This document shows, one piece after another, positions 3,457-46,243 of a stretch of DNA of 52,309 nucleotides. Positions within the stretch are counted from its first letter, which is position 1. The number at the start of each line of letters is the position of its first letter. Below the pieces are notes generated by a model, which was given only the letters and a program-made list of their open reading frames with translations, had not been told where the DNA came from and made no database searches. The stretch comes from a virus (taxonomy: Duplodnaviria > Caudoviricetes), in IMG/VR virus record IMGVR_UViG_3300027759_000121, positions 1-52,309 of that record; one strand, written 5' to 3'. Made by a program: the position numbers and the translations under genes.

Positions 3457-3867
3457 ATGAAATCAGATAGAAGTTCGGGTATAATATTAAAATGTGGGGA
3501 TAAAGTTCTGTTATGTAAACGAGCTGATCACGAAACATATTCGGGTAAGTGGTTTATCCCAACAGGTCATTTAGAGGCAAATGAAACACCTAAAGATTGT
3601 GCTTATCGTGAGTTTTATGAAGAGACAAATATTAAGATAGATGAGGAAATAAGTTTAATTGGATTCATCACTAAGAAAGATGACAAAGGAGAACCAAAAG
3701 GTCTAATTTATGTTTATTTATATGAATCCGATAAAGAAATGATACCAAATTTAGATAAAGCAGAAGATGGTCACGAACATTCAGATTGTGGGTTTTTTAC
3801 AATAAATGAACTACCTGTTGATAAAAATGACGAATTATTTAAAATTTTAACAAAAATATTATCTTAA
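3457..3867 (+). CDS. NUDIX hydrolase
   Basis: Nudix box GHLEANETPKDCAYREFYEETNI. Confidence 0.9.
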   Translation: MKSDRSSGIILKCGDKVLLCKRADHETYSGKWFIPTGHLEANETPKDCAYREFYEETNIKIDEEISLIGFITKKDDKGEPKGLIYVYLYESDKEMIPNLDKAEDGHEHSDCGFFTINELPVDKNDELFKILTKILS

Positions 3868-5236: not shown

Positions 5237-7419
5237 AAAGAATTACAAATAGTTTTATAAAAAATATTGTTAGACAAAGTCTAAATGAAAGTTATGGTTT
5301 GTTAAATGAGGACTTACAAGAAGTTGAACCATATAGTATAAAAACTAGTGTTAAACACGGTACTGTTCCCAAAGGAACTTCCGTGTATAATATGACATAC
5401 GAAAAATGTCCCGAAGGTGGAATTTGTTTTGAATTTTTATCTCAGGCAAAAGAGGATGCAAAGAATTTATCAGGAAAAGACCTGATTAATAGGTGGTGCT
5501 CACAAACTTATATGGCAAACGCTATGGGTAAACCAACGAAAAGTGGAACTGTTCTAACTAATGTCACTACACCACTTTTTGCACAATTAACAGAATTTGG
5601 GATGAACTATGGAACTATTACCACAAAACTTAAAGATTTAGGTGATTTTCCTACTTTTTGTGTGGCAAATAAAAAATTTAAAACATATGGTGGTGGAGAT
5701 TATAGTTTGGGTATAGCTGGGACTAGTGAGACTACGGGTTCTGATTATGGTATTGAAAATGATCATGAAGGAGAAAGAGCTGAATATTATGCAATAACTG
5801 ATGGTTTATTTGAAAATTCAATTGCGGTGAGTGATGAGTTTTATGAGACATGGAAAAAACAACTTGAGGAAAAATATAAAGCAACTTTGGATGCTGCGGA
5901 TAAAATAAAAAAAGACGAAGAAAATAAAAAAAATATACAGGCAAAAATTATAGGTGGTGGAGGTGAATATATAAAATGGGTGCAAGAACACCCAGCATTA
6001 ATTAATAAAAGTGAAATAATAACCACCGACAGAGGTGATGCTAATCTTTATAGTTTAAACACAGGTGACCCCATTATTGATCAATATCAATATGGTGTAC
6101 TTTTAATAGTTGACCCAAAAAATCCATCTATGGACGGAACTTATGAAGATATTAGAGTTAAAAAGGGAACCAATATTGCACTTTCTATTGATCCAACTAC
6201 TGATAAGTTTTGGCAATTTGCAATATCCCAAAATGATGTTTGGAGATATGATGATGTTGCGTGGAGTGGAGCGTTTTCATCAATTCAGGGAAAACTTGCT
6301 TTAACTACTAATCCTGATCTTGAGGACGATGGTACAATAAATCAGAGTATTCAAACAGAGAGAACAAAAGGTTTCAGACACAATTTATTAACTGAGATTG
6401 AATTAAAACTTTGGGATAGAGGTCCTGAGGTTGGTAAAATACAAAGTAAATTAAAGTTAAAACCAGATAAAGGAACCCCAATATATGGTCCTGACACTAA
6501 GGCGGCGGTTGAAAAATTCCAAACAGAAAATGGAATAACACCTGTAACAGGAAATATTGATGCTAACACTTATGATAAAATTCTTGAAAAATTTCCAGAT
6601 CCAAAACCAGCATCCGCAACAGAATATACAAGAGATTTAAATATTGGTTCTACAGGTCCTGATGTTGAGGCAATACAAAAAAAATTAAAGTTAAAACCAG
6701 GTAAATATGGTACCGACACTCAAACTGCGGTCATGAATTACCAAAAAAAATATACAGATTTAAATGACCAAGCTACTGGTATTGTTGATAAAGAAACATT
6801 TGACCACATTATGGCCAATACAAAACTTGATACACCTATATCATATTCAGGTAGAAAACATAATTACAAAAAAGGTGATTGGATTGCAGTAAAACCTAAT
6901 TCAGGAAACCAAGCAAGTCAACTATATGAAAATAATGGATATTTTAAAATATTAGAAGCACCAGATAGTTATACAATTATTATAGATGCTGTTTGGCCTT
7001 GGGACACAAAGGGTTATTCTATTGTTGGAGGAACTACCGCTAAAATAATATTTGGACCTGATTCTATGGGAGGGGCAAAAACAATACCTACTGTAAGTGA
7101 TAATTCTTCAAATACAAAAGAAAAAGGCACAAAAAACAATACCAGTAATTCAGGTAATAATTCGGGCACAAATACTATAGATTCTGAAAAACAAAGACAA
7201 AGAGATATACGTAACAAAGAATTTTGTGATACACTAAGAGAGATAAAAAAATATTTAAATAACACTAAAAGTGCTAATTTACCTGTTAATTGTCAAAGAA
7301 CCCCAGAAACAAAAAATCAAATTATGTTGGCACTTACAGGAGGAACTCCAGCTCCGGCACCAACTCAAGATACGGGAGTTAACGTACAATCTGTTCCTGT
7401 AACGGATACATTATTCTAA
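5233..7419 (+). CDS. 728-aa protein with two peptidoglycan-binding domains, probably virion-associated
   Basis: GPEVGKIQSKL..YGPDTKAAVEKFQ..G..TGNID and GPDVEAIQKKL..YGTDTQTAVMNYQ..TGIVD. Confidence 0.75.
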   Translation: MKRITNSFIKNIVRQSLNESYGLLNEDLQEVEPYSIKTSVKHGTVPKGTSVYNMTYEKCPEGGICFEFLSQAKEDAKNLSGKDLINRWCSQTYMANAMGKPTKSGTVLTNVTTPLFAQLTEFGMNYGTITTKLKDLGDFPTFCVANKKFKTYGGGDYSLGIAGTSETTGSDYGIENDHEGERAEYYAITDGLFENSIAVSDEFYETWKKQLEEKYKATLDAADKIKKDEENKKNIQAKIIGGGGEYIKWVQEHPALINKSEIITTDRGDANLYSLNTGDPIIDQYQYGVLLIVDPKNPSMDGTYEDIRVKKGTNIALSIDPTTDKFWQFAISQNDVWRYDDVAWSGAFSSIQGKLALTTNPDLEDDGTINQSIQTERTKGFRHNLLTEIELKLWDRGPEVGKIQSKLKLKPDKGTPIYGPDTKAAVEKFQTENGITPVTGNIDANTYDKILEKFPDPKPASATEYTRDLNIGSTGPDVEAIQKKLKLKPGKYGTDTQTAVMNYQKKYTDLNDQATGIVDKETFDHIMANTKLDTPISYSGRKHNYKKGDWIAVKPNSGNQASQLYENNGYFKILEAPDSYTIIIDAVWPWDTKGYSIVGGTTAKIIFGPDSMGGAKTIPTVSDNSSNTKEKGTKNNTSNSGNNSGTNTIDSEKQRQRDIRNKEFCDTLREIKKYLNNTKSANLPVNCQRTPETKNQIMLALTGGTPAPAPTQDTGVNVQSVPVTDTLF

Positions 7420-7490
7420 TAAAACAATAAATTTAATGAGGGAGAGTGATCTCCCTTTTTTTATGCAATTTTTTTTATTATATTTGTGAT

Positions 7491-7880: not shown

Positions 7881-8463
7881 CTAAAAACTTTTTAAAATCA
7901 GTTGTTGATGGTTTTTTATTTTTAAAATAATATATTTCGGTTTTACCTTCATATGTGATTTTTTTATAATACGCATCTGGAACGGTAGCGCCTGAGGCCA
8001 AAACTTTAGACGTCTTACTGAACTCACATATTATCTCAACTAAAACTATTTTATATTTTAAAGCCAGACTTCGTTCGTACTCCTCCAATAATCTCCAAGT
8101 GGTTCGATTAAGATCTTGATGTTGTAGTGAACAATTTAAATAGGTAAACGTTTTTTTCAATAGCTCTCTAGTACAATTAAAATCAGCAGCAGGAGCCATG
8201 TGACCCTTGTCCCAGATATTATCATCGTAGTCTTTATTGTCTGAAGTAATGATTGAATCACAAATATAAAAATCGAGACCCTTTCTCGATGCTGTACCTG
8301 ATGGACATTGAACGGAATACTTTACAGATATTGGTTGTTGTAATTTTTCCGAATAGATAATTTTAAATATGTCATTTTTAATGACAACACTATCTCTTAA
8401 AACTTTTTGAGATAGTAATAAAAGGGGAAAAATAAAAAATAAGGATAATAAATACTTTTTCAT
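7870..8463 (-). CDS. DNA/RNA non-specific endonuclease (His-Me finger) with signal peptide
   Basis: DKGHMAPAAD, N..LQ..LN..W..LE motifs; MKKYLLSLFFIFPLLLLS signal. Confidence 0.88.
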   Translation of the reverse strand: MKKYLLSLFFIFPLLLLSQKVLRDSVVIKNDIFKIIYSEKLQQPISVKYSVQCPSGTASRKGLDFYICDSIITSDNKDYDDNIWDKGHMAPAADFNCTRELLKKTFTYLNCSLQHQDLNRTTWRLLEEYERSLALKYKIVLVEIICEFSKTSKVLASGATVPDAYYKKITYEGKTEIYYFKNKKPSTTDFKKFLVKG

Positions 8464-8490
8464 TCTAATAAATATAACTACATTTGTATT

Positions 8491-9144
8491 ATGAGTTTTA
8501 AAAAAATACAAACAACAGGTAGAGTCTGGTTTACTTCAGATACCCATTTTTCGCACAAAAATATTTGTCGTGGTGTAACGGATTGGCGAACCAAAGATGG
8601 TGATGTACCGATCGATGCGACTAGAGATTTTTTGACGGTTGAAAAAATGAATGCAAGATTGGTGGATAACATTAACCATTTTGTTAATCAAAACGATACT
8701 CTAATTATGTTGGGTGACGTTTCATTTGGGGGGTTTGAAAACATTGAGATATTTTTGGATAGACTAACATGTAAAAATATTCACCTAATACTGGGAAATC
8801 ATGATCACCACATTGAAAACAATAGAGAGAATATACGAAGTAAATTTTTGAGTGTGTCTCACTATTTGGAGGTAAGTCTAAACGACCGTAAATTTGTTTT
8901 GTGTCACTACCCACTCCAAAGTTGGCATGGGATGTCCAAAGGGGTTATCCACCTTCATGGGCACATTCATTCAGGATGTAAAAATAAATTTGGTAATGGT
9001 AAAAAAATGGATGTCGGTGTAGATGGAAACGGGTTGGATCCGTATAGTATTGATGAGATAATTAAAATTATGTCTAAACGTTCGATCGGTTCCGAGATAT
9101 CAGATGATCACCATTTAGATGGGATGGTTGGGGTTGTTGGATAA
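8491..9144 (+). CDS. Calcineurin-like metallophosphoesterase
   Basis: SDTHF, LGDVS, GNHD, HGHIH, DVGVD motifs. Confidence 0.9.
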   Translation: MSFKKIQTTGRVWFTSDTHFSHKNICRGVTDWRTKDGDVPIDATRDFLTVEKMNARLVDNINHFVNQNDTLIMLGDVSFGGFENIEIFLDRLTCKNIHLILGNHDHHIENNRENIRSKFLSVSHYLEVSLNDRKFVLCHYPLQSWHGMSKGVIHLHGHIHSGCKNKFGNGKKMDVGVDGNGLDPYSIDEIIKIMSKRSIGSEISDDHHLDGMVGVVG

Positions 9145-11185: not shown

Positions 11186-11893
11186 GTGAAAAAACCTTGT
11201 AAAGAATGTCCGCATATCATAAAAAACAGTCATAACGATATGATTGTTGATTTCGGTCGCAGAACGGGGAAACAACATAATTGCCATATGACCGAAGGGG
11301 TAAAAGATTTGTGGAACGTTAAAGATAAAAAATTAGAATGTTATGGATCAAAGAGAGATAATTTACGGAGTATGTGATAAAACAGGTGGGTGTGATTCCT
11401 ACTTTGGATTTTTCAAGAATGAGAAAGATGCTGAACATGAAGTTGAAGTTCAAGCCAGCAGACTTAAAGAAGATTTGGGTATGATGGATATTGAAATCCA
11501 ATCAGATCGTGCAACGATAAATGGTAAATTGGTAGTAGTAATTCACAGATACGTATTAAGATGAAAACAAGAGAAACTAAATTTGGAACTTATATAGAAA
11601 TGGAAACAGAAACAAGTACAAAACTAACTGGCGATAAAATCACAAGGTTTGTTGAAAGATTGAAAAAAATTGGAATTGAAGTTAAACTTTCGGGTAATTA
11701 CCCTTGGGTTTATATTGATGAAATATGTGGTATCAGAGTAAAGGAAAGGTTTTTGGGTAATCATGGGTTTACTTTAATCTTTCTTCCAGGAAGAAATGAT
11801 AGTCCACCATCTGAATTTACAGATATTGGAGAAATATTCAAACTAATACGGAAGTACACTGAACAAAAAAATGAAACTTTTAAATCAGAATAA
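11186..11893 (+). CDS. Three small hypothetical proteins (11186-11377 Cys/His-rich, 11343-11564, 11561-11893)
   Basis: Overlapping ORFs behind TACATTTG at 11174; first has PCKECP..CH. Confidence 0.6.
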
Positions 11894-13122: not shown

Positions 13123-14256
13123 ATGGAAAACCAAAATAGTGTATGTTATGTTGGTGTAATCGGAGAGGTTAAACCAATAGAAGGGGCGGACAACATAGAA
13201 TTGGTGACTGTTGGTGGGTGGAATGCCATAACCAAAAAGGGTGAATACCAGATTGGTGATAAAATGGTTGTTGCAACCACAGATGCGGTAATACCACAAC
13301 CATTATCTGACTTGATGGAAGTTACCAACTACCTTCGTAAAGGTCAAAGAGTTCGTACAGTAAAACTTCGTGGAGTTTACTCTGAGTGTTTGTTAATACC
13401 ATTCAAATACTTGGTACCAAAATCATTGGAGAACAACGTTAATGAAGGTAATGATATGATGACAATACTTGGGATAACTAAGTATGAACCACCTGTTAAA
13501 ACCGTTCAGTTGAGTGTTGGGGGACGTAAAGTAAAATACCACCAAAACCCTAACTTCAAAGTGTATTACAAGTTCCCTAACCAAAAGAACGTACCTGATA
13601 TGTTTAGTGAGGAAGATGAGGTTGTTATAACTCGTAAGTTACACGGAACTAATGCTCGTTACGGAATAGTTAGAAAGAAAAAACTTTCTTTGTGGGATCG
13701 TGTTAAAATGTTATTTGGCAATCAATGGGCGGCGTTTGAATATGTATATGGTTCTCACAATGTTGAAAAAGGATCTGACTCTCAAGGATTCTATAACACT
13801 GATGTGTGGAAGACTGTTGCAAACACCTATAACATAAGAGGTAAATTGTGGGATCACGTAAAAGATACTTACGAACCATCTGTATTAACTGAAGGTGTTG
13901 TAATCTATGGTGAGATATATGGTGCGGGTATACAAAAAAATTACGAATACGGTTTGACTGATGTTAAATTCGCGGGGTTTGATGTTGAAGTTGATGGTGA
14001 GTACCAACCTTATATAAACGAAACTGTACACTTTGATTGTCTACAATTACCACAGGTTGAAGTATTGTGTCGTGGTAAATGGGATAAGGGAATACAAGAT
14101 AATTTTGTGTTTGATAATTTCATAGAGGGAACTAAAGTACCACACGAAGGTATAGTTGTAAAATCTGTAACAGGTGTTCGCAATAAAGTGAGTAAGGTGA
14201 TAAACCCTGGATATTTAATTTATGGTGAAAAACATAATGTTGGTGACTCCCATTAA
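13123..14256 (+). CDS. ATP-dependent RNA ligase, DRB0094 (Rnl5) type
   Basis: N-terminal OB module (IEGADNIE, KLRGVYSE), motif I KLHGTN, YGEIYG, FDV, EGIVVK. Confidence 0.88.
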   Translation: MENQNSVCYVGVIGEVKPIEGADNIELVTVGGWNAITKKGEYQIGDKMVVATTDAVIPQPLSDLMEVTNYLRKGQRVRTVKLRGVYSECLLIPFKYLVPKSLENNVNEGNDMMTILGITKYEPPVKTVQLSVGGRKVKYHQNPNFKVYYKFPNQKNVPDMFSEEDEVVITRKLHGTNARYGIVRKKKLSLWDRVKMLFGNQWAAFEYVYGSHNVEKGSDSQGFYNTDVWKTVANTYNIRGKLWDHVKDTYEPSVLTEGVVIYGEIYGAGIQKNYEYGLTDVKFAGFDVEVDGEYQPYINETVHFDCLQLPQVEVLCRGKWDKGIQDNFVFDNFIEGTKVPHEGIVVKSVTGVRNKVSKVINPGYLIYGEKHNVGDSH

Positions 14257-16567: not shown

Positions 16568-17152
16568 ATGAAAGTATTGATGTTAGATAACGATGGTGTA
16601 ATTTGTCTCTCCAACAATTGGGGTGGGCGAAAAAAGAAATGGTCAAAGTATCGTTCAGCAAATCCAGACTCAAGTAAGGAACTTAAAGATGCTCCTGTTG
16701 AATATCGTTTTGACGACTTCGATAAAAAGGCAATCAAAATCCTTAATGAAATACTTGAAGAAACAGGTGCTGAAATTGTTGTGTCATCAGATTGGAAATT
16801 ACACGCAACTCTTGAAGAACTTGGTGACTACTACGAAAGTCAGGGGATTATCAAACGACCAATTGCATTGACACCAAACATACAACATTGTACCGTTCAC
16901 GGTAACGGTTTTATATGGTCACCACAATGGGATTTAGAACAAACACGAACTATTGAAATAAAACAATACCTACACGATCATCCTGAGGTTACACATTGGG
17001 TTTCGGTTGATGATTTGAATATGGGAAAAAATGGGGAGCCTTGGAAAGATTGTTGGGCAATAGATAATTTTGTATTAACACCAAAATCAAGTGAAGGTAT
17101 TAAACAATCTGGGATCAAAGAAAAAATATTAAAATTTTTAAAAAATGACTAA
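16568..17152 (+). CDS. HAD phosphatase, Swiss-army-knife RNA-repair type
   Basis: LDNDGV, IVVSSDW, EI..YL, SVDD motifs. Confidence 0.85.
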   Translation: MKVLMLDNDGVICLSNNWGGRKKKWSKYRSANPDSSKELKDAPVEYRFDDFDKKAIKILNEILEETGAEIVVSSDWKLHATLEELGDYYESQGIIKRPIALTPNIQHCTVHGNGFIWSPQWDLEQTRTIEIKQYLHDHPEVTHWVSVDDLNMGKNGEPWKDCWAIDNFVLTPKSSEGIKQSGIKEKILKFLKND

Positions 17153-19664: not shown

Positions 19665-20075
19665 ATGGAAAAAGTTAAAATTTATCTAGATGATGTAAGA
19701 ACACCAGTTGATCCAAGTTGGATCGTTGTTCGTTCTTACGACGAGTTCGTCCAAAAGATAAACTCAATTGGGTTGGAGAATATTGAATTGATATCGTTGG
19801 ATCACGATTTGGGTGACAGTGCAATGAATGAATGGTTGTATGGTGTTGTAAAAAACTACGTAATAAATTACGATAACATCACAGAGAAAACAGGTATGGA
19901 TTGTACCAAATGGTTGGTTAATCAATGGTTAGATGGTAAACCTGTGGTGGAAGTTGTGGTTCACTCAGCAAATGCCGTAGGTAGTGGTAATATGATGGGA
20001 TACATCAACAATTACAGACACTTAGGTAGATTACCTCAGAATTGTATAAGAGTGCAAATAGAACACACGGTATAG
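19665..20075 (+). CDS. Cyclic-phosphate-processing receiver-domain protein
   Basis: IYLDDVR, ISLDHDLG, TGMDC, VHSAN motifs. Confidence 0.82.
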   Translation: MEKVKIYLDDVRTPVDPSWIVVRSYDEFVQKINSIGLENIELISLDHDLGDSAMNEWLYGVVKNYVINYDNITEKTGMDCTKWLVNQWLDGKPVVEVVVHSANAVGSGNMMGYINNYRHLGRLPQNCIRVQIEHTV

Positions 20076-20139: not shown

Positions 20140-21528
20140 ATGAGATTTATACTACTACTTATACTACTTTTTTCGTGTTCAATTAATTATAATGTCCATG
20201 AACGGAATCTCCAACTACAACATAATGGGATGATCAAACAGGATATAATCATGAAAAATAAAATGACTAAACTTCGAAAGCAAGGTGTCAGGTCATATAA
20301 GAAAAATAAGATTAGTAAAATACGCATAATCCCAAATGGAAAATTTGTAATAAAGTAAAGTCATGGAAAGCCCAAAAATTAACACACCTAATGGTATTGG
20401 TGAATTAAACAATGTATATGTTTCCGAATTAGGATTCTTAATGGTTAAAATCTATTTTAAAAATGGGACATATATAACTTACAATTTAGGCAAACACGAT
20501 GAAAACAATAATGTATTCACCGATAAAATAAACAATTTCAATATAGTTGATTTATGAGAAAAATTTATATATTTTTTTGGTGGTTATGGAATTATCCTGA
20601 AATTGTATGGATGAAATTTAAATCATATTTTAAAAAATGACAATCCAACAGAATGAAAAAATTAATTAGTATATTTGGGGTATTAATTTTGTTATCATGT
20701 AAGTCTAAGACTTATAAATACCAGATTAATGGTGAGGTATACATACCATCGGCAGAATCAAATCGAAGGTATCCGGCAACATGGTATACCGATACGATAT
20801 CCTTCGATAGTGAAACTGCTTATTATTTTAATAGTGACGGTAGTGAGGTTAGAATTGAACCACCTTATATTTTAAAATATAATAAATAAAAATAAGTGAT
20901 ATGACGGAAAGAGAATTAATACTTTTAGGGTTTAAAAGTGAAGAAATGAGAGAGCACGAAGGTGATGAAACGTATTACTACGTTTTAGATATTGTCGATG
21001 GTATTACCTTTATCACACGAACCAATGATGAGATTAAAGATGATGAATGGTATGTTGAATTTTTTAATACAGACCCCTCAGTTAGGTTCCACGATTTTAA
21101 GGAAGTACAATTATTAATCAATCAATTAAGAAACGCCATTGTCAAAAATGAAATTTAAGATACCAACACATGATCCATACACCGGTGAATTAAATCCCCA
21201 TTACGAGGAACTCACCGGAGAAAAACATCCACATTTAATTGAATATAATGAGGATGAAACCAGTCATTGTTTTAATCTACAATCACTTATCGGTAAAGAA
21301 TTTAGATACGATGGTAAGTATGGGATTTCTAATTGGACGGACAAGGTTAAAAATATCGAACCAAATTCAAACATCTATCCCAATCCGTTAGAATCGATAA
21401 GGGCAACCAAAAGTGGAAACGTAACCAAACCATATAAAATGGTTGGATACACCTATGATTTACATGTTAGATCAACAAGGGGTGAACAACTTTACGAGTT
21501 TGAGAAGTGTATATTTTTAGATAATTAA
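20140..21528 (+). CDS. Five small hypothetical proteins, two with lipoprotein-like signals (20140-20358, 20653-20889)
   Basis: LLFSC and LLSC lipobox-like ends of hydrophobic leaders; others 20363-20557, 20901-21158, about 21148-21528. Confidence 0.55.
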
Positions 21529-21544
21529 AAAACATATTAGACTA

Positions 21545-22159
21545 ATGGATATTTTTAACACAAAAATAGATTTGACCAAAATAACGTGCCATTCTGGAGG
21601 GGCGGTGGGATCAGATACCGTTTGGGACGAGATTGGTGAAGAGTTTGGTGTCAAAACCAATGCTTATTCCTATAGAACAAAGTCGCACGTATCTCAGAAT
21701 AAGGTGGAGATTTCCGACCAAGATTATGAAGAAGGTGTTATTCAAATAACCAAAGCAAACGAAATTTTGGGTAGGTTTGGTATTCATAAATATATGAATC
21801 TATTGGCTAGAAACTGGTCGCAGGTTAAATATTCAAAACAAGTTTTTGCGATTGGTACTATAATCGAAGCTGGCGGGAAATCCGTTAAGGGATATAAAAA
21901 CAAGTCTAAAAATGACGTAGTTGATGGTGGTACAGGATATGCCGTTATGATGGCAATCAATCAAGAGAACGATGTTTATGTTTTCGACCAAATTAAAGAT
22001 AAGTGGTTTAAATGGGATTATGGCTCTCTTAGTTTTGCGGAGTTAAAAGATGTTCCTTCGATTACAGAACAGGATTTTGCAGGTATAGGAACAAGAGAGA
22101 TTCGACCGAACGGAATACAAGCAATTAGAGATGTATATGCAAAAACATTTATTAAATAA
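21545..22159 (+). CDS. SLOG-like nucleotide-binding phage protein
   Basis: HSGGAVGSD, LARN..QV, DGGTGYA, FAGIGTR motifs. Confidence 0.65.
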   Translation: MDIFNTKIDLTKITCHSGGAVGSDTVWDEIGEEFGVKTNAYSYRTKSHVSQNKVEISDQDYEEGVIQITKANEILGRFGIHKYMNLLARNWSQVKYSKQVFAIGTIIEAGGKSVKGYKNKSKNDVVDGGTGYAVMMAINQENDVYVFDQIKDKWFKWDYGSLSFAELKDVPSITEQDFAGIGTREIRPNGIQAIRDVYAKTFIK

Positions 22160-22233
22160 AAAAAACAACAATTAAATCCTCATCTGACAAGTTGGGGATT
22201 GTTTTTTTAAAATAAAATTTCTATATTTACAAT

Positions 22234-22913
22234 ATGGAAAAGCGAAGTGAACACTACGGAGACGTGGTAAAGTGGATAGAAAAGGTAATAGACTCTTGCG
22301 AGACATATCGGCAATCAATGGCAGGGCTTAAATTAATCAGAAATTTTCGTCAACAATTAATAAATAAATCTCCAGAGACGTATTGGGGAAGTTACCATTA
22401 CGACATTATTAGTCCACTCGAAAGTAGATTAAGGAGTCGACAATATACTATCACATCGACACTAAATGATGGGGAGGATGTCGATAAATTAAAAAAAAAC
22501 TCGAGGATCTAACAGATAAGTACTCAAGGGTTGTAACCATCCAATCTGATCCAAAATATCTTGGAACGTTTGAGGATGACAGGAACCAAATTGCGAAGGA
22601 AATTAAACTGGTAAAACGTAAAATTAACAATAAATAAATAATCGGTATGTTGAAAAATTTTGTAAAATGGTTTGAAATAAACTGTGGATGGTTTTTTACA
22701 CATGGTAGAAAACAAGCTGCGTGGGCGGAATACTTAAGAAAAAAATATGGTAAAGAGGAAACTAAAAAACCAACTCGTATCACGTTTAGTCCAACACCTA
22801 AATGTTTAATTTGTGAAACTGACATGGAAACAATAAAATTAAACCAACCATTTTGTGGTGGATGTCTATCTGTTTTGACGGGATTAGTTAAAAATAAGAA
22901 AGATGAAATTTAA
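22234..22913 (+). CDS. Small hypothetical proteins (22234-22512; 22647-22913 with CxxC..CxxC)
   Basis: ORFs upstream of thyA. Confidence 0.5.
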
Positions 22914-22922
22914 ATATAAGTT

Positions 22923-23579
22923 ATGAATACATTAGATAAAAAATACACAGATTTACTCCAAGATATATTAGATAATGGAGTCCGCAAGGAGGATCGTACT
23001 GGGACAGGCACACTTTCAGTATTCGGAAGACAGATTCGTCATAATATGAAAGATGGGTTTCCACTCATTACAACCAAAAAGATGGCTTGGAAAACTATGG
23101 TAACCGAATTACTATGGTTTTTAAGAGGTGAAACAAACATTAAATTCTTATTGGATAATGGATGTCATATATGGACGGGTGATGCCTATAAAGTTTATGA
23201 TGAAGACTTTGACCGTGAACACCCAGCATTCAGTGCACCATACCCGAAAAGACTTACTCAAAAAGAATTTGAAGAGAAGATTATGACTGATGACGAATTC
23301 AATAAATGGTATGGAGACCTAGGTCCAATTTATGGACATCAATGGAGAGAATGGAAACACATTAAAGAAGGTGGTTATTTACTTAAAAATGGAAATGAAG
23401 GTAAAGGGACAACCACTAGACATATAGACCAAATCTCAAATCTAATCAACGACCTTAAAACAAACCCAGATTCAAGACGTTTGATGGTTAATGCTTGGAA
23501 TGTAGCTGATTTACCAGTTACTGATTATAGGACTGATGATGAACTTTATCAAGATTATTTAAAGAATGGGATTATGTAG
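22923..23579 (+). CDS. thyA: Thymidylate synthase, N-terminal half of a split gene
   Basis: DRTGTGTLSVFG, FPLITTKK, ELLWFLRG, DLGPIYGHQWR, PDSRRLMVNAWN, then TAG before the catalytic Cys. Confidence 0.92.
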   Translation: MNTLDKKYTDLLQDILDNGVRKEDRTGTGTLSVFGRQIRHNMKDGFPLITTKKMAWKTMVTELLWFLRGETNIKFLLDNGCHIWTGDAYKVYDEDFDREHPAFSAPYPKRLTQKEFEEKIMTDDEFNKWYGDLGPIYGHQWREWKHIKEGGYLLKNGNEGKGTTTRHIDQISNLINDLKTNPDSRRLMVNAWNVADLPVTDYRTDDELYQDYLKNGIM

Positions 23580-23580
23580 A

Positions 23581-23985
23581 ATGAAAATAAAAATACCTTT
23601 ATATGATATTAAAATTAAAATTTATTTTGATTATGATTTGAACAAACCTATTAATAAAATAAAGAAAAATCATAATAAGAAAAAACTTTATAGAATAAAT
23701 GAAATTGATTTTGATGGTGTTGTTATTGGGGAGTTTATCCCAAAAAATAAAATAATTTATGTATTAATCAAGAAAACTAAAAAAGGTATTAATGTGGATA
23801 CATTAACTCACGAAATATATCATTTAACAACCAAAATAATGAAATACAATAACTTTAAATTTAATAAAACAGATGAACCTTTTGCGATATTAAACGGGAA
23901 GTTAAATTCAATGATTATAGGTAAATTAATTAAAAATGGTGATAAATTATATTACCCAACAAGTAAAAAAATAAAAATAAAATAA
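23581..23985 (+). CDS. HExxH-motif protein inserted between thyA halves
   Basis: DTLTHEIYH..DEPFA zincin-like pattern. Confidence 0.55.
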   Translation: MKIKIPLYDIKIKIYFDYDLNKPINKIKKNHNKKKLYRINEIDFDGVVIGEFIPKNKIIYVLIKKTKKGINVDTLTHEIYHLTTKIMKYNNFKFNKTDEPFAILNGKLNSMIIGKLIKNGDKLYYPTSKKIKIK

Positions 23986-23989
23986 ATTT

Positions 23990-24395
23990 ATGAAAAAATC
24001 AGAACAAATTGAAGAAATTGGAACTGCAATTAGTGAGTGTTTGAATAAGTTGTATGAAACTAAAGAACCGTTATCATTTAACCCATTTCCTAAGATGTAT
24101 CATCCAACAGATGATTCTATAAATATACCATTGATTGTTGACGGTAAAAAAATAATTATTGAAATAAAATCATCAAATTATGATTATTGATGTTAACACT
24201 TTTATCCCATCATTTGGTGATTTTATAGTTTATTCTAAGGAAAGTGATATTGAAGAAAATTTATTCAAAGAGATATTTTTTGAATTTTTAAACAATCCAA
24301 AAAAATACAATAATCCAGAAATAATAAAAACGTATTTGAATGAGAAATTACCAATAAATTCTTATATTCAAATAATAAATAGACTTAAATTATGA
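23990..24395 (+). CDS. Two small hypothetical proteins inserted between thyA halves (23990-24190, 24180-24395)
   Basis: Overlapping ORFs; last overlaps the start of thyA-C. Confidence 0.6.
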
Positions 24396-25141
24396 GTAAA
24401 AAATTAACAAAAGAAGAGTTTTTAGAAAAACTAAAAACAGATAGAGATTTTAATAATAGATATGGAAGAAAACATATCACGGAAGGAAAAATGGTACTTC
24501 CACCTTGTCATTATGGATTTCAAATATATACAAGAGAGTTGAGTGAGTTAGAAAGACATGATATTAAAGAACAATATGGGTTTGATTGTAGAAAATTAGC
24601 AAAATCTTCTATTAAACAATTAGATGATGCAAACATACCAACACGAGCAATCTCATTAATGTGGTCGCAAAGATCGTGTGATATTTTTTTGGGAATCCCA
24701 TTCAACATCGCTTCTTATGGGTTGTTATTAGAAATCATTGCTAAAACAGTTAATATGGTTCCAGATGAATTGATTGGAAACTTGGGTGATACCCATTTAT
24801 ATTCAAATCACATTGAACAAGCAAAGGAACAAATAGGTAGAGAATTAACATATAAAGAACGTTATGATATTTGGTTTGAGAATAATTACCAAACTGGTAT
24901 GGAATATAATTTAGATGTCGAACAAGACTTTAATAATAATGTTGGTGAAGATTACATGACTGTACCACCTTATAGGACGAGAGAACCTTTTCCATTACCA
25001 ACATTAAAAATAAATTCAGGAAATGATAATTGGCATTTACTAGGTATCAACGAAATCATTAATAGTTTAGATCCAGATATTACTTTTAAAATAGAGAACT
25101 ATCAATCACATCCGACAATTAAAGCACCACTTTCTAATTAA
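24392..25141 (+). CDS. thyA: Thymidylate synthase, C-terminal catalytic half of a split gene
   Basis: MVLPPCH, QRSCDIFLGIPFNIASY, GDTHLYSNH, Y.SHP.IKAPLS. Confidence 0.92.
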   Translation: MSKKLTKEEFLEKLKTDRDFNNRYGRKHITEGKMVLPPCHYGFQIYTRELSELERHDIKEQYGFDCRKLAKSSIKQLDDANIPTRAISLMWSQRSCDIFLGIPFNIASYGLLLEIIAKTVNMVPDELIGNLGDTHLYSNHIEQAKEQIGRELTYKERYDIWFENNYQTGMEYNLDVEQDFNNNVGEDYMTVPPYRTREPFPLPTLKINSGNDNWHLLGINEIINSLDPDITFKIENYQSHPTIKAPLSN

Positions 25142-25144
25142 ATT

Positions 25145-25978
25145 ATGACATACATATATAACATATTTAAGCAATACAAATACTCGTTACTGTTAATATA
25201 TTTGTATATGTTCATAGCTCAGATGTTATTTTTAATAGAACCATATGTGTTAGGTAAGATGATCGATGGTTTATTACATAAAGAATATTTTTGGATATTT
25301 TGTTTTATAGGTATCGCTATCGTTGAAAATCTATTCATTTACAAGAGAATGGTATTTGACACTAAGGTTTATACTAAAATTTATAATAATATAGTATTCA
25401 AATATCTTAAGAAAGAAAATTATGTTAATTCATCCTCAACAATGGCTAGAGTTGAAATGTCAAATGATATAATCAATTTTTTAGAAAATGATATGCATTA
25501 TTATATTTATGCAATAATTTCAATAATTGGTACATTGTTTTTTATATTTTTAGAGAATCCAATGACTGGATTCACTGTCCTGTCATGTGTTGCCCCAATT
25601 TGTTTTATTGTCTATTCCTTATATAGAAAAATAGGTCAGAGTACAAGACTTAAACATACCCATCTTGAACAAAAAATTGACATATTGAGTGGTGGTAACG
25701 TATCAAAAATTGACACATTTTTTAAAAGAAGAAGAAAAATTCTAATATACTCATCAACACTACAAGGTAAAAATTGGACAGCTCTTAATATAACTAAAAC
25801 CACATTTTTAATACTTGCTCTTATTGTATTTACCGGTACGGGTACTAATTTGACTCAAGGGGAAACCGTTGCAATGTTTGCATATATTAACCAATTCGTT
25901 ATATCATTAATGTCAATCCCAATGGGGGTTGAGATATTCACACGTATGAGAGATATTATTAATAGGATTAAAGAATGA
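25145..25978 (+). CDS. ABC-transporter-type transmembrane domain protein without ATPase
   Basis: About six TM segments; PYVLGKMIDGL pattern. Confidence 0.65.
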   Translation: MTYIYNIFKQYKYSLLLIYLYMFIAQMLFLIEPYVLGKMIDGLLHKEYFWIFCFIGIAIVENLFIYKRMVFDTKVYTKIYNNIVFKYLKKENYVNSSSTMARVEMSNDIINFLENDMHYYIYAIISIIGTLFFIFLENPMTGFTVLSCVAPICFIVYSLYRKIGQSTRLKHTHLEQKIDILSGGNVSKIDTFFKRRRKILIYSSTLQGKNWTALNITKTTFLILALIVFTGTGTNLTQGETVAMFAYINQFVISLMSIPMGVEIFTRMRDIINRIKE

Positions 25979-25994
25979 TAATTTATAAAAAAAA

Positions 25995-26872
25995 ATGATT
26001 ATGAAAACAGGAACCATTAGACATAAAGACAATATCGGGGTTTATATTGAATATGAACCAAGAAAAGTTTACGGATATTATAAGAACGAAGAGATCTGTA
26101 AAATATATTATAGTGAAATAATATTGAACCCAGACATATTTGCACCTGAGGTTAGTGTTGGAGATAAGGTGTCGTTTATTATTAAAACATATGGAACTGG
26201 TGATGGTTCATTTTATGTTGCAGAAATAGTTGATTGACATTAATCGGATAACTATATTTGTATAGGTAAACAAAATTGAAATTATGGAGAAAGAAAATAA
26301 TAAATGGACAAGAGAGCAAGGAGAATTGGATAAGCAAAGACTCCTCGAAGCATTAAAGGAAATATCCGTCTCAGAAGAGGATTTGGAATGGGTTAGCAAT
26401 AAATTAGATGGGATAATCGACGATAAAGAAAAAAATGAAACAAAAGGTAATATTAGTGATAATAACTTTAATAATCGTTTACACTTATAGTTGTACCCAA
26501 TCAAACTAGATGAACTAACAGATATCGTTAACGGTTTAATTAATTAAAATGACAAAAGAGCAAATTTTAAAATACGGAGAAATACAATACCTAAAAGGTA
26601 GATTGGATGAACTAGATAAGGCGTTCCCAGAATTGATGGATGTGTATGGTAGCAGAAAACTTGATCAACGAATCGAGAAGTACATCCAAAAACTAAAAAA
26701 CGTGGACGAGATTTCGTATTACCTATATGAGGTTGAATTAAAAACAACAAGAAAGTCTAAGGAACGAAGTAAAAGGGACATCAAGGATCTTTTGGTGCAA
26801 ATCATAATTAATGAGAATATCGCCAATGAGGATATCCTTGAGAGAATTAAAAAACAAATCGATACTTACTAG
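25995..26872 (+). CDS. Small hypothetical proteins (25995-26237, 26284-26490, 26549-26872)
   Basis: ORF track and operon packing. Confidence 0.5.
26497..26550 (+). repeat. 54-nt dispersed duplicate of 46193-46246 (3' end of response regulator gene)
   Basis: 53 of 54 nt identical by direct comparison. Confidence 0.9.
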
Positions 26873-26984
26873 AAAAGTTAAAGAACTTATTGGTGATAAT
26901 TCAAAATAATTTAGTATATTTGTATTATTCTTAATACGATAAAGTTTTTTTACATGCTCGTGATACTTATGGTAAAGTGTTATA

Positions 26985-27626
26985 ATGGATTATAAAAAAA
27001 TACACGATAATATTATTCTTAAGGCAAATAGTAGAGTTTTAATTGGTTATGGGGAGAATCACCACGTAGTTCCAAAGTGTTTAGGTGGTGATAATAAAAA
27101 AGAAAACTTAGTCAGGTTAACGGCAAAAGAACATTGGGTAATCCATCTACTTTTAGTAGAAATTTATCCAAATCATCCTAAATTAAAATTGGCGGTTAGG
27201 ATGATGTCCGTAAGAAGTGATAACCAAGAAAGGAAAGTAATAAGATCTGGTAAACAGTTTGAAAGAGTTAAGATAGAAGCCTCTCAAGTTCATAGTGATT
27301 TGACTCGTGGAGTTAAAAAACCTCCATTTACTCAAGATCATAGGGACAATATTAGTAAATCAAAAATAGGAAAACCAAGTCCTAATAAAGGAAAAGTTTT
27401 TACCGAAGAACATAAAAGAAAAATTGGATTATCAAGTAAAGGAAGAATATCTGGAGATAAAAACCCTATGAAAATAAAAGAAGTTTTAGATAAACATCCT
27501 GCACTTTTTAGTGATATGAATAATCCTAGTAAGATAAAAACAAAATGTCCATACTGTGAGGTTATTTCTGGAAAGGGTAACTACAGTAAATGGCATGGGG
27601 ATAAATGTAAATATAAAAAAATATGA
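26985..27626 (+). mobile_element. HNH homing endonuclease with NUMOD3-like repeats
   Basis: ENHHVVPKCLGG..NLVRLTAKEH..IH; FTEEHKRKIG; CPYC..WH..KC. Confidence 0.88.
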
Positions 27627-45883: not shown

Positions 45884-46243
45884 ATGAAGAAAAAAATGCT
45901 TATAGTGGATGACGAAGAAGACATCTTAATATTCTTATCATATCACTTTAATAAAAACGGATTCACTGTAACCACAGCACCTGATGGGATCATAGGATTA
46001 TCGAAATTTGAAAAAGATTCCTTTGATATTGTTATAACAGATATCCGTATGCCAAATATGGATGGTATAGAAATGTGTGGTGAGATAAAAAAACAAGATA
46101 CCACAACACCAATCATATTCTTAACGGCAGTTACGGATGATTATAAAATATTGCATGCAATGAGAACAGGGGCGTCCCAGTTTGTTGATAAACCAATCAA
46201 ACTAGATGAACTAACAGATATCGTTAACAGTTTAATTAATTAA
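45884..46243 (+). CDS. Single-domain response regulator (CheY-like receiver)
   Basis: LIVDDE, TDIRMPNMDG, FLTA, KP. Confidence 0.92.
   Translation: MKKKMLIVDDEEDILIFLSYHFNKNGFTVTTAPDGIIGLSKFEKDSFDIVITDIRMPNMDGIEMCGEIKKQDTTTPIIFLTAVTDDYKILHAMRTGASQFVDKPIKLDELTDIVNSLIN

Follow-up and report, generated by a model that had tools for sequence, protein, structure and literature searches.

The stretch of viral metagenome DNA analysed here (record IMGVR_UViG_3300027759_000121; 52,309 bases, completeness estimate 18%; hereafter the window) carries a thymidylate synthase gene, thyA, in two parts on the plus strand, with three small open reading frames (ORFs) between them. The first part, ORF 22923-23579 (218 amino acids, aa), matched positions 1-139 of the 266 in Pfam profile PF00303 (E 6.9e-53), and the second, ORF 24392-25141 (249 aa), matched positions 137-229 and, in a second stretch, 223-265 (E 7.1e-33). 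Jointly the two ORFs span positions 1-139 and 137-265, a whole-length family match. Against TIGR03284, the NCBIfam thyA equivalog with a cut-off of 108 bits, the N part scored 201 bits and the C part 96.5 bits, and the intact thyA of a 281-kb sister contig (L009) scored 313.7 bits. The nearest cultured relatives of the thyA region are the Flavobacterium immuto phages.

The body of the N part (22923-23513, residues 1-197) contains the motifs DRTGTG, LLWFL, GPIYGHQWR and DSRR and ends with AWNVADL at base 23513. Beyond this motif the ORF continues for 21 residues, PVTDYRTDDELYQDYLKNGIM, up to a stop codon (23514-23579; net charge -3); we call this extension the tail. The C part begins with a leader of 33 residues, MSKKLTKEEFLEKLKTDRDFNNRYGRKHITEGK (24392-24490; net charge positive), ahead of MVLPPCH, which contains the catalytic Cys and begins at 24491; its body (24491-25141) runs to KAPLSN and contains the motifs QRSxD, PFN and GDxHLY. 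Tail and leader are both borne by the cassette described below. In the immuto phages, whose ThyA is intact and has 423 aa, 2 residues separate the two motifs (AWNVGEL-DQ-MVLPPCH). With a stop at 23577-23579, a new start at 24392 and 812 bases between them, the window does not encode the one polypeptide per protomer that characterises ThyA.

The 812-base gap is taken up by three tightly packed small ORFs, all on the plus strand. ORF A (23581-23985) has 134 aa if read from the ATG at 23581, its first ATG being at 23566, and contains an HExxH motif (HEIYH). ORF B (23990-24190) has 66 aa and is 100% identical in the related contigs L016 and L057, and ORF C (24180-24395), with 71 aa, is 99-100% identical in the same two contigs. 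The TGA stop of ORF C overlaps the ATG of the C part (ATGA). The G+C content falls from about 0.35 to about 0.20 across 23500-24500. ORF A had no Pfam match but matched phrog_1365, of unknown function (E 1.1e-5); in the protein atlas it belongs to a viral hypothetical-protein cluster, for which Peptidase_M78 is a weak lead only (0.89). No Pfam or PHROG match was found for ORF B, and the Pfam matches of ORF C were all below threshold. An earlier reading of the letters alone (the original prediction) had described this layout as about 20 extra residues after AWNVADL, 33 before MVLPPCH, a two-residue spacing in intact ThyA and a 0.8-kb gap with three packed ORFs, one with HExxH; our counts agree with it throughout, the first extension having 21 residues and the spacing consisting of DQ alone in the immuto phages.

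Misassembly, which had been raised as the possible undoing of the split, is excluded by two observations. A 1374-nucleotide contig (record 10) from an independent run, X2, covers 23427-24523 and spans both junctions, and L016 has the same three ORFs, 99-100% identical, within a thyA whose identity to that of the window is only 65% in the N part and 60% in the C part. A contig from run X1 also covers 23558-24518.

Our analysis of relatives showed that the split is not peculiar to the window. We examined the best 80 of 417 viral relatives of the N part; most of them have an intact thyA, and 11 loci are split at the same place (L007, L008, L012-L019 and L022). Pattern scans of DNA for the two junction peptides added further split contigs. 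In all there are about 27 contigs with a split thyA, and at least 17 further viral contigs are cut between AWNVADL and MVLPPCH, a position that we call site B.

The contents of the insert differ among the site-B alleles. A GIY-YIG/NUMOD3 endonuclease gene lies in L007, L014, L022, L093, L097 and L106; that of L007 matched TIGR01453 with 97.8 bits (cut-off 56) and NUMOD3 with E 2.6e-16. An HNH-type gene with NUMOD3 and an I-TevI-like DNA-binding domain (28.3 bits in L015, cut-off 27) occupies the site in L015 and L017. Various other loci carry other small ORFs, L013 and L100 retain the last endonuclease codons alone, fused to the tail, and the window and L016 carry ORFs A, B and C. In run X1, C-terminal codons of an endonuclease stand directly ahead of the three-ORF cargo, and in L087 ORF A lies beside an HNH gene. 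Pfam and PHROGs searches found no homing endonuclease gene in the three ORFs of the window insert. These results show that the insert is a mobile cassette of the homing-endonuclease type. The original prediction of three unrelated ORFs without a homing endonuclease is right for the window in that no such gene is present, but the ORFs are cargo of a homing-endonuclease-type cassette whose site holds GIY-YIG or HNH genes in relatives. The search it had proposed for intact and split alleles in related phages found both, as seen in L009 and in the further site-B splits. The intact thyA around AWNVGELDQMVLPPCH is a candidate cleavage target of the GIY-YIG (L007 type) or HNH (L015 type) enzymes.

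In another contig, L057, the cargo lies outside thyA. ORFs A, B and C (91-100% identical) are found there at 6354-7463, about 1 kb downstream of an intact thyA and between two paralogous small genes, and a free 37-aa ORF consisting of the leader alone follows them. Because this free leader ORF follows the cargo ORFs, the leader moves with the cargo outside thyA.

What the site-B alleles have in common is the two peptides at the ends of the cassette. All N parts end with P[VI]TDYRTDDELYxDYLK..stop and all C parts begin with M..KKLTKEEFLEKLKTD..F...YGRKxITEGK, and the 21- and 33-residue extensions are conserved in all split alleles. Conservation at the nucleotide level ends at the stop codon of the tail and begins at the ATG of the leader. 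The 41 variable columns of tail and leader are distributed as 12, 3 and 26 over codon positions 1, 2 and 3 (chi-square about 19.7 against equal thirds, 2 degrees of freedom, by our own arithmetic). We then compared the proportions of synonymous (pS) and nonsynonymous (pN) differences by the Nei-Gojobori method among 10 site-B alleles, bearing in mind that such pairs lack independence and that the stretches compared are short. The tail (17 codons) had pS 0.42, pN 0.026 and pN/pS 0.06; the leader (29 codons) had pS 0.39, pN 0.048 and pN/pS 0.12; and blocks of the ThyA body in the same 10 alleles had pS 0.40-0.69, pN 0.09-0.13 and pN/pS 0.19-0.24. This codon pattern suggests that tail and leader are translated and under strong purifying selection, the direction of the difference being clear. 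The ends of the cassette have diverged to a pS of about 0.4 and yet are constrained more than the enzyme core, which argues that the split state is old and that the added peptides matter.

The leader is derived from thyA itself. A hidden Markov model (HMM) of the leader matched ThyA residues of about 111-133 (LTQEEFINKIKTDDEFAKKWG, a small-domain segment) in 28 of 28 intact ThyA, 27 of which scored 8-26 bits, while none of 560 shuffles exceeded 1.8 bits, and MAFFT likewise aligned the leader to this native segment. When folded in isolation, the leader showed predicted helices at 7-16 and 18-24 (predicted local distance difference test score, pLDDT, 74-81); the isolated folds of the two halves were modest, with mean pLDDT of 71 and 66, and were used for the secondary structure of leader and tail only. 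The leader is a diverged copy of the small-domain helix pair of thyA. We also considered whether the tail was a copy of the thyA helix GDAYKNYLK, forming a second small domain with the leader, and found no support for it, as the tail HMM gave negative scores throughout the 28 intact ThyA, lower than that of the best shuffle (2.5 bits).

A segment resembling ..FTKEEFINKCKTDTEFSERWG.. and followed by ..IEERELSLEER.. was also seen in unrelated small proteins, encoded by a 114-aa ORF upstream of thyA in L115/L120 and by 3544-4017 of L012. By its sequence, the helix-pair motif behind the leader seems to occur outside ThyA too, in small phage proteins.

There is a second insertion site. At site A, found in about 10 further contigs (including L087/L088, L095, L110, L113-L116, L118 and L120), the break in thyA falls between ..YGAGWRNWxGK and IDQI.., within a surface loop that is variable. 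The site-A tail, SDDxLYEDYLKKVKxK-stop, and leader, ..HEDGTPF[TS]KEEFLQKLKTDKEFNDEFGNKG, are clearly related to the site-B pair, and they are constrained as well (pN/pS 0.12, n=6). By inspection alone, the site-A and site-B leaders look nearer to each other than to native ThyA segments, and HEDGTPF, a prefix typical of site A, is also present in L111, a divergent allele of site B. In L118, thyA lies in three pieces with two different endonuclease genes. The pieces are on the minus strand (11312-11638, then a piece at 3632-3829 in oriented coordinates, then 8339-9076; the middle piece has 65 aa only), the first gap contains a GIY-YIG-like ORF and the second an HNH-type ORF with small ORFs, and the first cut falls in the loop just ahead of the native LTKEEFINKIKTDDEF segment. 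It is plausible that the first insertion took place in the loop before the native segment, as in L118, and that the cassette later moved with a flanking piece of thyA.

These observations led us to a proposal that we make tentatively, as it is at present somewhat more open to doubt than to acceptance. Tail and leader may be a portable pair of assembly peptides owned by the cassette, by which an endonuclease element would bring the remedy for its own fragmentation. Such a pair would fit different surface loops of thyA (three sites, up to three chains) and would let the endonuclease or cargo be swapped while the enzyme stays active, the leader having been recruited from the thyA helix pair.

A further piece of a split gene may be present in L117, where an orphan 43-aa ORF (1316-1447), ending in ..YGAGWRNWGGK and the site-A tail, precedes an intact thyA by 1.2 kb on its upstream side. 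A split allele may have left it behind as a relic.

Comparison with the sister contig L009, whose thyA is intact and has no cassette, bears on how the lineage of the window acquired the insert. Identity to L009 is 97.1% over 20372-23198 and 98.2% over 24645-25148, but 82% over 23309-23513 and 79% over 24489-24544, beside the cassette. The tract differing from L009 (23198-24645) comprises the cassette with about 315 and about 155 bases of flanking thyA, and we read it as co-conversion. On this comparison, the identity profile bears the signature of homing with co-conversion, and the thyA of the window seems to have been converted from an intact allele by recombination that carried the cassette and a few hundred bases of donor thyA. 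Among the 10 site-B alleles, pS was lowest at or next to the ends of the cassette (0.39-0.47) and higher farther off (0.58-0.69). A tree of the N part, built from 33 rows by a quick method and with a very long branch for L111, requires at least 3 changes of the split state. It places the window among intact alleles (Shimodaira-Hasegawa-like approximate likelihood ratio test, SH-aLRT, 97). Intact alleles (..NVGELDQ..) are present as DNA in the same samples, X1 and X4.

Within the N part, about 180 bases (23163-23343) are 96-100% identical to the intact allele of L006 while their neighbours are not. The thyA body thus appears to be a fine-scale mosaic.

Several lines of evidence bear on whether the two chains make an enzyme. 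All catalytic motif patterns are present in the two halves of the window, namely the Cys of PCH, DRTG, DSRR, QRS and the Asn of PFN; we take the roles of this Cys, of the dUMP-binding arginines and of the uracil-specific Asn to be those of E. coli ThyA. The five motif patterns were all matched in 11 of 12 site-B N parts and 12 of 13 site-B C parts, and only the divergent L111 failed in each case, the patterns having been written for the main clade. No internal stop or frameshift was found inside a half in the roughly 27 split contigs. Derivatives free of an endonuclease (the window, L012, L013, L016 and L100) have kept the split with both frames open.

We also modelled the two halves as a complex. 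The interaction prediction score from aligned errors (ipSAE) was 0.87, against 0.00 for the best of 3 controls; 58 of 80 solved complexes reached that mark, as did 2 of 110 mismatched pairs, though these counts apply only roughly because we used our own alignments. Runs agreed in at least 94% of contacts, the pLDDT of the partner was at least 80, and there were about 315 contacts between the halves. In the model, strand 187-189 of the N chain pairs with strand 43-45 of the C chain, restoring the native sheet, and residues 196-215 (tail) and 4-38 (leader) lie in the confident interface.

Taken together, the comparative and modelled evidence suggests that the split thyA probably encodes a working two-chain ThyA. 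The cassette would have been inserted between the strand ending in AWNVADL and the catalytic-Cys strand MVLPPCH. The RNA would stay unspliced and both parts would be translated, the C part perhaps by translational coupling to ORF C through the overlapping ATGA. The two chains would then co-fold into a native-like ThyA protomer and dimerise to (N/C)2 with a composite active site, to which the N chain would contribute Arg21 and the DSRR arginines and the C chain the Cys, QRSxD, the Asn and the His/Tyr. By analogy with the split NrdA of Aeromonas phage Aeh1, discussed below, tail and leader may be constrained since they help the chains to find or hold each other, or the split protomer to dimerise. 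A natural two-chain ThyA assembling in trans, with both halves keeping all motifs, is what the original prediction had proposed. The motifs are kept in the window and in nearly all split alleles, and the lack of any intron or intein signal, the exclusion of misassembly, the constrained extensions and the complex model all agree with it, but its framing missed the mobile cassette. The structure model that it had called for turned out native-like, which speaks for likeness to the enzyme and does not by itself show binding.

Some points weigh against a two-chain enzyme. The complex score may reflect the model's memory of solved thymidylate synthases, and the model output is silent on contact between tail and leader. 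Many structures have been solved for the fold that each chain half represents, so the pass shows likeness, not binding. The tail alone is a predicted helix (205-215) of low confidence, with pLDDT 55-62. Whole-body pairwise dN/dS was 0.23-0.56, inflated by badly aligned variable loops, and the body pN/pS is no proof of selection after the split, because the cassette spreads horizontally and much of the divergence between split alleles may predate the split; body dN/dS was set aside as not decisive in this respect. The window allele is young, its flanks being 97-98% identical to the intact sister, and it could be inactive without visible decay. The only RNA run, metatranscriptome X20, contained 0.06 of the sampled words and gave two short contigs (24259-24290 and 24794-24970), which are uninformative on splicing or expression. 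Finally, tail and leader have opposite charges in all site-B alleles (tails -3 to -5, leaders +2 to +5), but those of site A are not oppositely charged. Charge complementarity as a general rule was rejected on this account, and since the opposition fails at site A, a simple electrostatic clamp is not general.

The youth of the window allele also lends something to the idea that the split thyA is dead or dying, with the phage relying on the thymidylate synthase of its host and the halves still intact since the event was recent. Phage thyA is often dispensable. As the cassette spreads horizontally, many split alleles could be recent, and orphan fragments such as the 43-aa piece of L117 with its site-A tail and the free 37-aa leader of L057 do exist. 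However, a recent loss of function does not accord with cassette ends that have diverged to pS of about 0.4 under a constraint above that of the enzyme core, nor with about 27 split contigs that keep their motifs and have no stop or frameshift inside a half. The derivatives lacking an endonuclease still keep both frames open, and the halves model as a confident native-like complex. We consider this explanation unlikely.

It is less likely still that tail and leader are conserved for a reason other than assembly, such as expression signals (stop and start codons, coupling, a promoter) or service to the endonuclease, the native interface alone assembling the halves. That interface is large, with its roughly 315 contacts, the leader travels with the cargo outside thyA in L057, and charge complementarity is missing at site A. 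In Aeh1, moreover, passages of Crona et al. (PMC3045599) describe tails that are dispensable for the NrdA-a/NrdA-b heterodimer and needed only for the next step of assembly. Against this stand the constraint at the amino-acid level, with synonymous changes frequent and pN/pS of 0.06-0.12, and the model, whose confident interface includes both peptides.

A group I (or group II) intron, in which tail and leader would be in-frame open intron sequence and the spliced RNA would give one ThyA chain, as in the td gene of phage T4, is a further alternative. Phage thymidylate synthase genes are described as classic homes of group I introns with GIY-YIG endonucleases in passages of a review (PMC2988022), the L007 endonuclease matches the NCBIfam 'group I intron endonuclease' TIGR01453, and conserved ends around a variable ORF cargo are the expected layout of an intron. 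Frame-keeping junctions, with a U-ending 5′ and a G-ending 3′ boundary, can be drawn by eye (..GATTT / ..GAAGG, then AAAAATGG). The shortest insert folded slightly better than its shuffles, though unremarkably so (z -1.75; 3 of 100 shuffles folded as well). But Rfam searches showed no intron family in the window (E<=10), none in seven split loci (E<=1, the sole match being a tRNA elsewhere in L012) and none in 471 bases around the shortest insert (E<=10). The conserved sequence amounts to the 63-base tail and the 99-base leader alone, too little for a ribozyme core, and these flanks vary like codons, with 26 of 41 variable columns at position 3 and pN/pS of about 0.1. The leader is also homologous to a segment of the ThyA protein, and the cargo ORFs are packed right up to the stop and start codons. 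An intron is thus very improbable here.

Inteins begin with Cys, Ser or Ala, end with His-Asn, have a Cys, Ser or Thr nucleophile at +1 and contain a Hint fold. Tail and leader can hardly be remnants of a split intein or another protein-ligation device restoring one chain after translation, as the tail has Pro as its first residue and the leader is followed by Met or Gln (unlike intein ends as generally defined), 21 plus 33 residues are far too short for a Hint fold, Pfam detected no intein/Hint domain in either half and no endonuclease or intein/Hint domain in the three cargo ORFs, and the leader is homologous to ThyA. What remains in its favour is a layout resembling the fractured genes with split inteins described in parts of one paper (PMC2677866), with a short N piece, an endonuclease and a short C piece, and the mention of such an origin as a possibility for the Aeh1 tails in passages of Crona et al. 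(PMC3045599). The empty Rfam and Pfam searches and the junction residues bear out the earlier statement that there are no intein ends and no visible intron core.

Other features of the window were noted in passing. Directly after thyA lies a 277-aa ORF (25145-25978, plus strand) with an ABC-transporter membrane region (PF13748, E 3.2e-16; phrog_2392). It is missing in L009, in which 25148 joins 25984, and present after thyA in L010, L011, L052 and L087, and because of this distribution we regard it as another movable unit beside thyA. A free-standing HNH-type endonuclease-like ORF of 213 aa (26985-27626, plus strand; HH..PKCLGG..N motif, NUMOD3 20.0 bits) follows thyA at a distance of 1.8 kb; contig L089, elsewhere 98% identical, lacks it and has other sequence in place of 26871-27620 of the window. 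Elsewhere (13123-14256, 16568-17152, 19665-20075 and 45884-46243), the window, a large phage fragment, has a response-regulator receiver ORF and a set of RNA-repair-like genes; the latter comprises an RNA ligase with a PHA02142 OB domain, a cyclic-phosphate-processing receiver domain and the HAD domain known from 'Swiss Army Knife' RNA repair proteins.

A literature search for 'split thymidylate synthase' and related terms, covering titles, abstracts and passages (supplementary files were outside its scope), found no describing paper. Among 50,697 deposited phage records, none of the 141 matches to the leader-junction query covered at least 80% of it, so that at this sensitivity no split allele was found there. 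The novelty is nevertheless below what the original prediction had assumed, because the kind of solution is known from Aeh1 NrdA.

In Aeromonas phage Aeh1, insertion of mobE, which encodes an HNH endonuclease, has split the ribonucleotide reductase NrdA into NrdA-a and NrdA-b (Crona et al., Nucleic Acids Res 2011, PMC3045599). According to passages of that paper, the C- and N-terminal tails made by the insertion are essential for activity and oppositely charged, and such tails were predicted on other fragmented genes, perhaps as a general means of neutralising fragmentation. The two systems share much. Each concerns an enzyme of nucleotide metabolism that is one chain in relatives and into which a homing-endonuclease insertion has cut between adjacent beta-strands near active-site residues; no splicing is involved, for thyA as far as the sequence tells, each half has a unique terminal extension at the cut, and the G+C content of the insert is below that of the gene. 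The extensions are oppositely charged, in thyA at site B. Crona et al. cite Friedrich et al. 2007 on this system. Unlike in Aeh1, the enzyme is ThyA, known here from sequence and model, and the polarity is reversed, with an acidic C-terminal tail and a basic N-terminal leader. The ThyA pair is found in about 27 contigs, with a GIY-YIG, an HNH or no endonuclease, the gene having been lost from the insert in the window. It also occurs at two sites, with three pieces in one contig, and its leader demonstrably derives from thyA itself.

Parts of a review (Edgell, Gibb, Belfort 2010, PMC2988022) describe two other endonuclease-split genes, the T4 topoisomerase genes 39/60 (mobA) and the gene 43 DNA polymerase of Aeromonas phage 25 (seg-like). 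As in these cases, a free-standing endonuclease gene interrupts a coding region that relatives have in one piece, the separate polypeptides have to reassemble, and the endonuclease has moved to new sites in a transposition-like manner. The target genes differ, however, and no conserved portable pair of tails across sites is reported there in the passages concerned. The T4 td group I intron with I-TevI shares with our case the gene family, an insertion beside active-site codons and, in the relatives, a GIY-YIG of the same NCBIfam subfamily. In contrast to td, no ribozyme is detectable here and the conserved ends are protein-coding. The td intron itself lies further downstream, in the codons of the LGLPFN region.

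What is new here is that the enzyme is ThyA, that the tail pair is conserved and selected in many alleles and is portable between two sites with differing endonucleases and cargo, that the leader is traceable to thyA, and that a three-piece version exists. The locus shows a route by which free-standing endonucleases can, with neither intron nor intein, enter a gene at its most conserved part, and tail and leader offer a natural pair of short tags for split-protein work. If the chains form an active enzyme, Aeh1 NrdA would no longer be the only case of an essential-type enzyme whose fragmentation is neutralised by peptides that a mobile endonuclease insertion brought along; ThyA would be the second. 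It would also be the first with an evolutionary record, in which dozens of alleles and two endonuclease families are represented, cargo has been lost and exchanged, one peptide pair occupies two sites, a gene lies in three pieces and purifying selection on the tails is measurable. The general mechanism that Crona et al. proposed for such tails thereby becomes directly testable.

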